In this document: positions 6,125 to 6,147 of the stretch, one piece after another
How the letters are laid out: every line of letters begins with the position of its first letter
How positions within the stretch are numbered: position 1 is the stretch's first letter
Source: Escherichia phage T7
Direction: 5' to 3' (one strand)
DNA: 38,112 bases
Sequence record: MZ375238.1
Notes under the pieces: model-generated
The model's input: the letters and a program-made list of their open reading frames with translations, nothing else
Told to the model about the DNA's origin: nothing
The model's database searches: none
Program-made: the position numbers and the translations under genes

Positions 6125-6147
6125 TTTTACGACTCACTAAAGGAGGT
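6125..6147 (+). promoter_or_regulatory. T7 promoter phi1.5 with altered upstream end (-17 to -15 read TTT instead of TAA)
   Basis: ttttacgactcactaaaggaggt; the core from -14 to +6 is intact (+1 at 6142), but the upstream AT-recognition positions come from the deletion junction. Confidence 0.75.

Follow-up and report, generated by a model that had tools for sequence, protein, structure and literature searches.

In bacteriophage T7, the class II promoter φ1.5 and the gene that precedes it share three bases. In the reference annotation (NC_001604), +1 of φ1.5 is at 7778, hence -17 is at 7761, and gene 1.4 is annotated at 7608-7763, so that its TAA stop codon (7761-7763) is at the same time positions -17 to -15 of the promoter. 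According to a review, the element from -17 to -13 is contacted in the minor groove by residues ~91-103 in the N-terminal domain of the T7 RNA polymerase. The closest described mutants are those obtained by CRISPR/Cas9 iterative phage genome reduction (CiPGr; Yuan et al. 2022, PMC9825161), for which a 'cassette-gene' library 'designed to delete entire genes' was used and Cas9 cutting was combined with a template carrying 2 x 50-bp homology. 'Likely regulatory elements' were not targeted by the authors, and undesigned large deletions were reported in gp0.3-0.6 and gp19.5.

The window analysed here, the whole 38,112-bp stretch of record MZ375238.1, aligns end to end with T7 NC_001604 (39,937 bp) in four collinear blocks. 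Since the 160-bp terminal repeat is present at both ends, the window is a complete linear genome, and it is the genome of a laboratory-made, genome-reduced T7 mutant. Whole-genome comparison revealed three deletions (Table 1) and eight single-base changes. The junction of deletion 1 is at window 1244-1257. It took away genes 0.4-0.6 together with the terminal part of gene 0.3 and, at the 5' side, two-thirds of gene 0.7, which leaves an in-frame gene 0.3::0.7 fusion of 231 amino acids (ORF 925-1620) that carries the annotation 'protein kinase' in the sibling record MZ375235; this junction is common to five records of the same mutant series. Deletion 3, with its junction at window 37784-37793, took away most of gene 19.5 and sequence beyond it, and an identical junction is present in 41 mutant T7 records. 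The eight base differences are at window 162, 1145, 18170, 23049, 24607, 31383, 32536 and 33627. Seven of them are non-synonymous (gp0.3 D74G, gp7.3 R91H, gp11 A153E, gp12 T468A, gp16 G809S and A1193V, gp17 K214E), the change at 162 is non-coding, and none is a synonymous coding change. The changes are concentrated in tail and ejection proteins, which points to adaptation in the course of serial passage or to differences between laboratory strains.

Deletion 2 is the one that reaches into φ1.5. Window 6125-6147 reads TTTTACGACTCACTAAAGGAGGT, whereas φ1.5 of wild-type T7 (NC_001604, 7761-7783) reads TAATACGACTCACTAAAGGAGGT; A>T at -16 (6126) and A>T at -15 (6127) are the sole differences over -17 to +6. 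The alignment pairs window 6127 with T7 7607, the base preceding the ATG of gene 1.4; the next base, window 6128, is already T7 7764 and thus the T at -14. The TTT that now occupies -17 to -15 is therefore the triplet that stands before the ATG of gene 1.4 in wild-type T7. It is by chance, the left flank happening to end in TTT, that -17 is still T. The first-pass annotation had claimed that the stop codon of gene 1.4 forms -17 to -15 of φ1.5, that these native bases went with the deletion of the gene and were replaced by TTT from the upstream flank, with A-to-T changes at -16 and -15, and that the core from -14 to +6 with a start at 6142 was left intact. Reference annotation and alignment bear out each of these points. 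Nor is TTT native at this place: the reference has TAA, and TTT was encountered in no natural sequence searched. The change is a deterministic difference from the reference and involves no statistical signal.

Beyond the three bases, the entire flank upstream of -17 has been replaced. The element from -17 to -13 is now TTTTA, which is A/T in five of five positions, but -16 and -15 do not follow the order of the TAATA consensus, so that the invariant consensus A at -15 is lost (window 6127 is T). The specificity determinants at -12 to -5 (CGACTCAC, window 6130-6137), which are read by the specificity loop of the T7 RNA polymerase, are the same as in T7, and so is the unwinding and initiation region from -4 to +6. 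The start site (6142) and the ATG of gene 1.5 (6155) are 13 nt apart and collinear with T7 7778 and 7791. None of the other 16 T7 RNA polymerase promoters in the window differs from the reference.

Table 1 Features around φ1.5 (window coordinates) and the three deletions of the window (T7 NC_001604 coordinates).
Feature	Position	Strand	Remarks
Gene 1.3 (DNA ligase), intact	4995..6074	+	upstream neighbour
E. coli early terminator TE hairpin, GGCTCACC-TTCG-GGTGGGCC, intact	6082..6101	+	from fold; TE annotated at T7 7588
Orphaned Shine-Dalgarno AAGGAGA of deleted gene 1.4	6115..6121	+	now -27..-21 of φ1.5; precedes gene 1.4 ATG in wild type
φ1.5, class II T7 RNA polymerase promoter, variant form TTTTACGACTCACTAAAGGAGGT	6125..6147	+	-17..+6, +1 = 6142; orthologous to T7 7761-7783
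Deletion junction	6127..6128		T7 7607 joined to T7 7764; 156 bp = gene 1.4 ORF ATG..TAA; no microhomology
Gene 1.5, 29 codons, intact	6155..6244	+	TAA stop 6242-6244 = φ1.6 -17..-15
φ1.6 promoter TAATACGACTCACTAAAGGAGAC, unchanged	6242..6264	+	+1 = 6259, 117 bp downstream of φ1.5 +1
Deletion 1	T7 1257-2736		1,480 bp; between two copies of 13-bp direct repeat AGGAAGTCGAGGA
Deletion 2	T7 7608-7763		156 bp; no repeat at junction
Deletion 3	T7 39429-39617		189 bp; between two copies of 9-bp repeat ATAGAGTCA

Spontaneous deletions in T7 are typically located between short direct repeats. This is how the other two deletions of the window look, with repeats of 13 bp and 9 bp, whereas the two sides of the gene 1.4 junction share zero bases and the deleted segment coincides to the base with the coding sequence T7p11, from ATG through TAA. 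A 52-nt probe across the junction, whose design leaves wild-type genomes without a 28-nt seed match, found 63 records at 100% identity in the GenBank phage collection. All of them are engineered T7 mutants with MZ3752xx or OL9647xx accessions, one being titled 'Mutant Escherichia phage T7 clone T7_30L', and the junction was not found elsewhere in the phage collection. Within the 52 nt, none of the 63 mutants has a reversion or a compensating change.

A natural or spontaneous loss of gene 1.4, be it a native polymorphism or a CRISPR-escape deletion with no designed edit, would be in line with the existence of natural T7 relatives that lack the gene, with the two repeat-mediated spontaneous deletions in the same genome and with the undesigned deletions reported in PMC9825161. 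It does not account for end points that fall precisely on the ATG and the TAA, nor for the complete lack of microhomology. Moreover, the natural phages without gene 1.4 have a different arrangement (TE...GCGTT/TAATACG), in which TAA is kept and the ribosome-binding site of gene 1.4 is missing, and the junction of the window occurs solely in engineered mutants and never in the natural collections searched. This origin is effectively refuted. We infer that the gene 1.4 deletion is a designed, ORF-exact CRISPR/homologous-recombination edit of the Yuan et al. 2022 series. The attribution is based on the three shared junctions, on the style of the clone names (T7_30L, T7_300L) and on the fit to the paper, since designed whole-gene deletions together with undesigned ones in gp0.3-0.6 and gp19.5 match all three lesions of the window. 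The main text of PMC9825161 makes no mention of gp1.4 or φ1.5 and uses the word 'promoter' solely of the cassette; the clipping of φ1.5 would thus be an unremarked side effect of the design.

Natural sequences give a clear picture of what usually stands in front of this promoter core. In its TTT form, the 23-mer matched nothing exactly in IMG/VR, the metagenome collection or the GTDB genomes. Of the core TACGACTCACTAAAGGAGGTACAC, 12 copies were found in 11 natural viral contigs; they stand in five upstream contexts, and each of them is preceded by TAA (12/12). For six of these copies, all in T7-like contigs of IMG/VR, no gene 1.4 separates the promoter from the terminator TE, which adjoins it directly (...CCTTTCTGCGTT/TAATACG), and TAA is nevertheless kept. 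As a side observation, TE is in these relatives followed by the intact promoter TAATACGACTCACTAAAGGAGGT. One of the contigs without gene 1.4, 37,555 bp in length, is presumably Yersinia phage φA1122. Since TAA is kept where there is no gene 1.4 to be terminated, it is conserved as a part of the promoter and not just as the stop codon of gene 1.4. The same tendency is seen on a broader scale. In ~106 kb of natural T7-group sequence, 65 distinct promoter-like sites were counted, which are orthologues from close relatives and hence not independent events. All 65 have A at -15; at -16, 59 of them have A, 5 have T and one has C. Within T7, -15 is A in all 17 promoters, and T at -16 is found solely in φ4.7.

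What would the two substitutions do to promoter strength? Seen from the minor groove, an A:T pair resembles a T:A pair, and an A>T exchange should therefore be the substitution that is tolerated best. Quantitative data come from Komura et al. 2018, whose S2 File contains barcoded in vitro measurements on the consensus promoter as RNA/DNA read ratios; the values given here are from a part of that file. The wild type, represented by five barcodes, had a mean of 169 +/- 19. With T at -16 the ratio was 114.5 and with T at -15 it was 115.7, each ~68% of the wild type, where replicate barcodes in the file differ by up to 2-fold. G or C at these positions leaves 4-15% activity in the same part of the data (-16G, 26 and 22; -16C, 17 and 9; -15C, 7.2; -15G, 6.8). 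The A at -2, a class II feature of φ1.5, gave 161 and 138. The -16T/-15T double variant (TTTTACGACTCAC...) does not occur in this part of the S2 File, where its relatives are all multiply substituted. Multiplication of the two single effects predicts ~46% of wild-type activity. Back-calculation from two multiply substituted variants that start with TTTT, in which the effects of the other substitutions are divided out, gives ~0.25 and ~0.86 of the wild type, both being single-barcode values with a scatter of up to 2-fold. A preprint in which all 1-bp and 2-bp promoter mutants were measured (bioRxiv 10.64898/2026.08.01.742228) describes a higher rate of transcription with TAAT at -17.

The new flank is not likely to add much to this. 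Sequences at -22 to -18 have been reported to modulate T7 promoter strength; A/T content in this stretch is two of five in the wild type (ACTGG) and two of five in the mutant (GACAC), and a large effect of the flank is therefore not to be expected. Taken together, a modest reduction of the clipped φ1.5 is plausible and, judged from the published in vitro figures, the reading that is supported best. This agrees with the first-pass annotation, according to which transcription from this promoter may be modestly reduced. The pair of A>T changes might also be functionally silent, with the AT-rich minor groove kept and the 68% figures reflecting assay noise. Indeed, no other substitution at either position comes close to A>T in mildness in the part of the Komura data used, T at -13 was even at 114% of the wild type there, the natural promoter φ4.7 has T at -16, the junction is unchanged across 63 viable mutants, and replicates in these data scatter by up to ~2-fold. 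However, -16T and -15T each fall short of the mean over the five wild-type barcodes by ~2.8 SD in these data, -15 is A at 65 of 65 natural sites, and TAA is present in all natural contexts, even in those in which it is not the stop codon of gene 1.4. We therefore consider silence rather unlikely, albeit the most conceivable of the alternatives discussed here, and keep to a modest loss. That the A at -15 is invariant in all natural promoters examined may be a sign of tighter selection in vivo than the in vitro figure would let us believe.

The sequence of events that very probably explains the locus as a whole is a simple one: exact removal of gene 1.4 created a variant of φ1.5 with a modest loss in polymerase binding and a small effect on the phage. 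The deletion from the first base of the ATG to the last base of the TAA substituted TTT for TAA at -17 to -15 of φ1.5; A>T at -16 and -15 would then modestly weaken the binding of the polymerase and leave ~25-85% of wild-type activity, and start site and specificity of the promoter should be unaltered. Transcription of the region would be covered by φ1.6 and by read-through from φ1.1A, φ1.1B and φ1.3, and only gene 1.5 would depend specifically on φ1.5. The arrangement of the neighbouring elements is consistent with this. Gene 1.5 is the sole gene between φ1.5 and φ1.6, φ1.6 provides gene 1.6 and whatever follows it with a redundant promoter, and φ1.1A, φ1.1B and φ1.3 are intact upstream. TE, a host terminator, does not halt the T7 polymerase. 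The termination point of TE (T7 7588, window 6108) is now 17 bp upstream of -17 of φ1.5, where it was 173 bp in the wild type. With φ1.6 and three upstream T7 promoters intact, little effect on gene expression and fitness of the phage is expected.

φ1.5 may matter more than this redundancy suggests. When T7 lacking gene 1 was forced onto an altered polymerase, φ1.5 was among the few promoters that evolved, and it did so rapidly and in all four lines; the authors of that work called such promoters 'primary transcriptional hubs'. It is tempting to speculate that the clipped φ1.5, a weak class II promoter with two hits in its binding element and a new flank, is substantially disabled in vivo. The invariant A at -15 in nature, the behaviour of φ1.5 as a selected 'hub' in two evolution experiments, the lower strength of class II promoters and their greater sensitivity to conditions such as ionic strength, both described in a review, and one of the two back-calculated estimates for the double change, ~25% of the wild type from single values in the part of the Komura data used, would all agree with this, as would the lower fitness of the T7 mutants of the PMC9825161 series in comparison with the wild type. 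On the other hand, each single A>T keeps ~68% activity in that same part of the data, φ1.6 and three upstream T7 promoters are intact, and no compensating change has arisen in any of the 63 genomes. Substantial disablement of φ1.5 is thus quite improbable. The same holds for its corollary that a disabled φ1.5 adds to the fitness cost of the mutants and confounds gene 1.4 as 'non-essential but costly', a cost for which the many other deletions in these mutants can account as well. The somewhat more general proposition that the TTT form is harmful, in that class II transcription past TE is measurably lower and the cost of gene 1.4 loss is in part promoter damage, is hardly more probable. A modest loss of binding with a small effect on the phage remains the preferred explanation.

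The deletion brought the leader of gene 1.4 next to the promoter. The orphaned AAGGAGA has no start codon at a usable distance downstream, and neither a new σ70 promoter nor a new terminator was found at the junction. Predicted folds of the read-through transcripts, which were compared with a view to structures that hide the ribosome-binding site of gene 1.5, are weak in both cases and differ little (-8.8 kcal/mol in the mutant vs -10.5 kcal/mol in the wild type). As a side observation, the frame of gene 1.5 is open upstream across the junction, which results in a GTG-started ORF of 49 amino acids (6095-6244, + strand) with its GTG inside the TE hairpin. It is the sole candidate for new coding potential across the junction, is devoid of a ribosome-binding site and was judged to be meaningless.

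The overlap of a stop codon with a promoter is not peculiar to φ1.5. By reference coordinates, the TAA stop of the upstream gene forms -17 to -15 in 7 of the 17 T7 promoters, the pairs being gene 1.2/φ1.3, 1.4/φ1.5, 1.5/φ1.6, 2/φ2.5, 4.2/φ4.3, 8/φ9 and 16/φ17. Consequently, an ORF-exact deletion of any of these genes alters a promoter. Were gene 1.5 removed in the same ORF-exact manner, ACC would come to stand at -17 to -15 of φ1.6; the junction expected from this had no match in the phage collection. 'Clean' deletions that follow the ORF to the base can thus silently change promoters, and phenotypes ascribed to the loss of a gene can be partly regulatory; keeping the stop codon in place avoids the clipping. 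If the TTT form were harmful after all, the fitness cost ascribed to the loss of gene 1.4 in genome-reduction and gene-essentiality screens would be in part promoter damage, with the same hazard at any of the seven genes. For the genome of the window the consequence is likely small, and nothing new is learned about promoter recognition. The scar at φ1.5 is nothing out of the ordinary: it came with a designed deletion in a laboratory phage that is already known. Both the mutant series and the sequence dependence of the -17 to -13 element are already published, and nothing is categorically new; the small point that goes beyond the text of the source paper is that the ORF-exact deletion of gene 1.4 alters φ1.5.

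Compared with known systems, the promoter of the window is most similar to φ1.5 of wild-type T7, with which it has in common the locus, the sequence from -14 to +6, all downstream sequence, the start site and the class II features (A at -2, initiation region GGAGGT). The difference is upstream, where the window has the leader of gene 1.4 and TE and the wild type has gene 1.4 coding sequence. In this respect the window resembles the natural relatives in IMG/VR that lack gene 1.4, since there, too, TE is near a φ1.5-type promoter with the same core from -14 to +7; these relatives, however, keep TAA (...CTGCGTT/TAATACG), whereas the window has TTT and has retained the ribosome-binding site of gene 1.4. 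T at -16 is shared with φ4.7 (CTATTCGACTCACTATAGGAGAT), a natural T7 promoter. φ4.7 keeps A at -15, whereas φ1.5 of the window has T, which is present at -15 in no natural promoter examined. The closest counterparts are the CRISPR-reduced T7 mutants (MZ375237, MZ375239-MZ375294 and OL9647xx), none of whose listed records unites the deletions and the length of the window (38,112 bp) in just this way: they have the gene 1.4 junction exactly as in the window in 63 records, and the other two junctions of the window recur among them as well, that of gene 0.3/0.7 in 5 records and that of gene 19.5 in 41.
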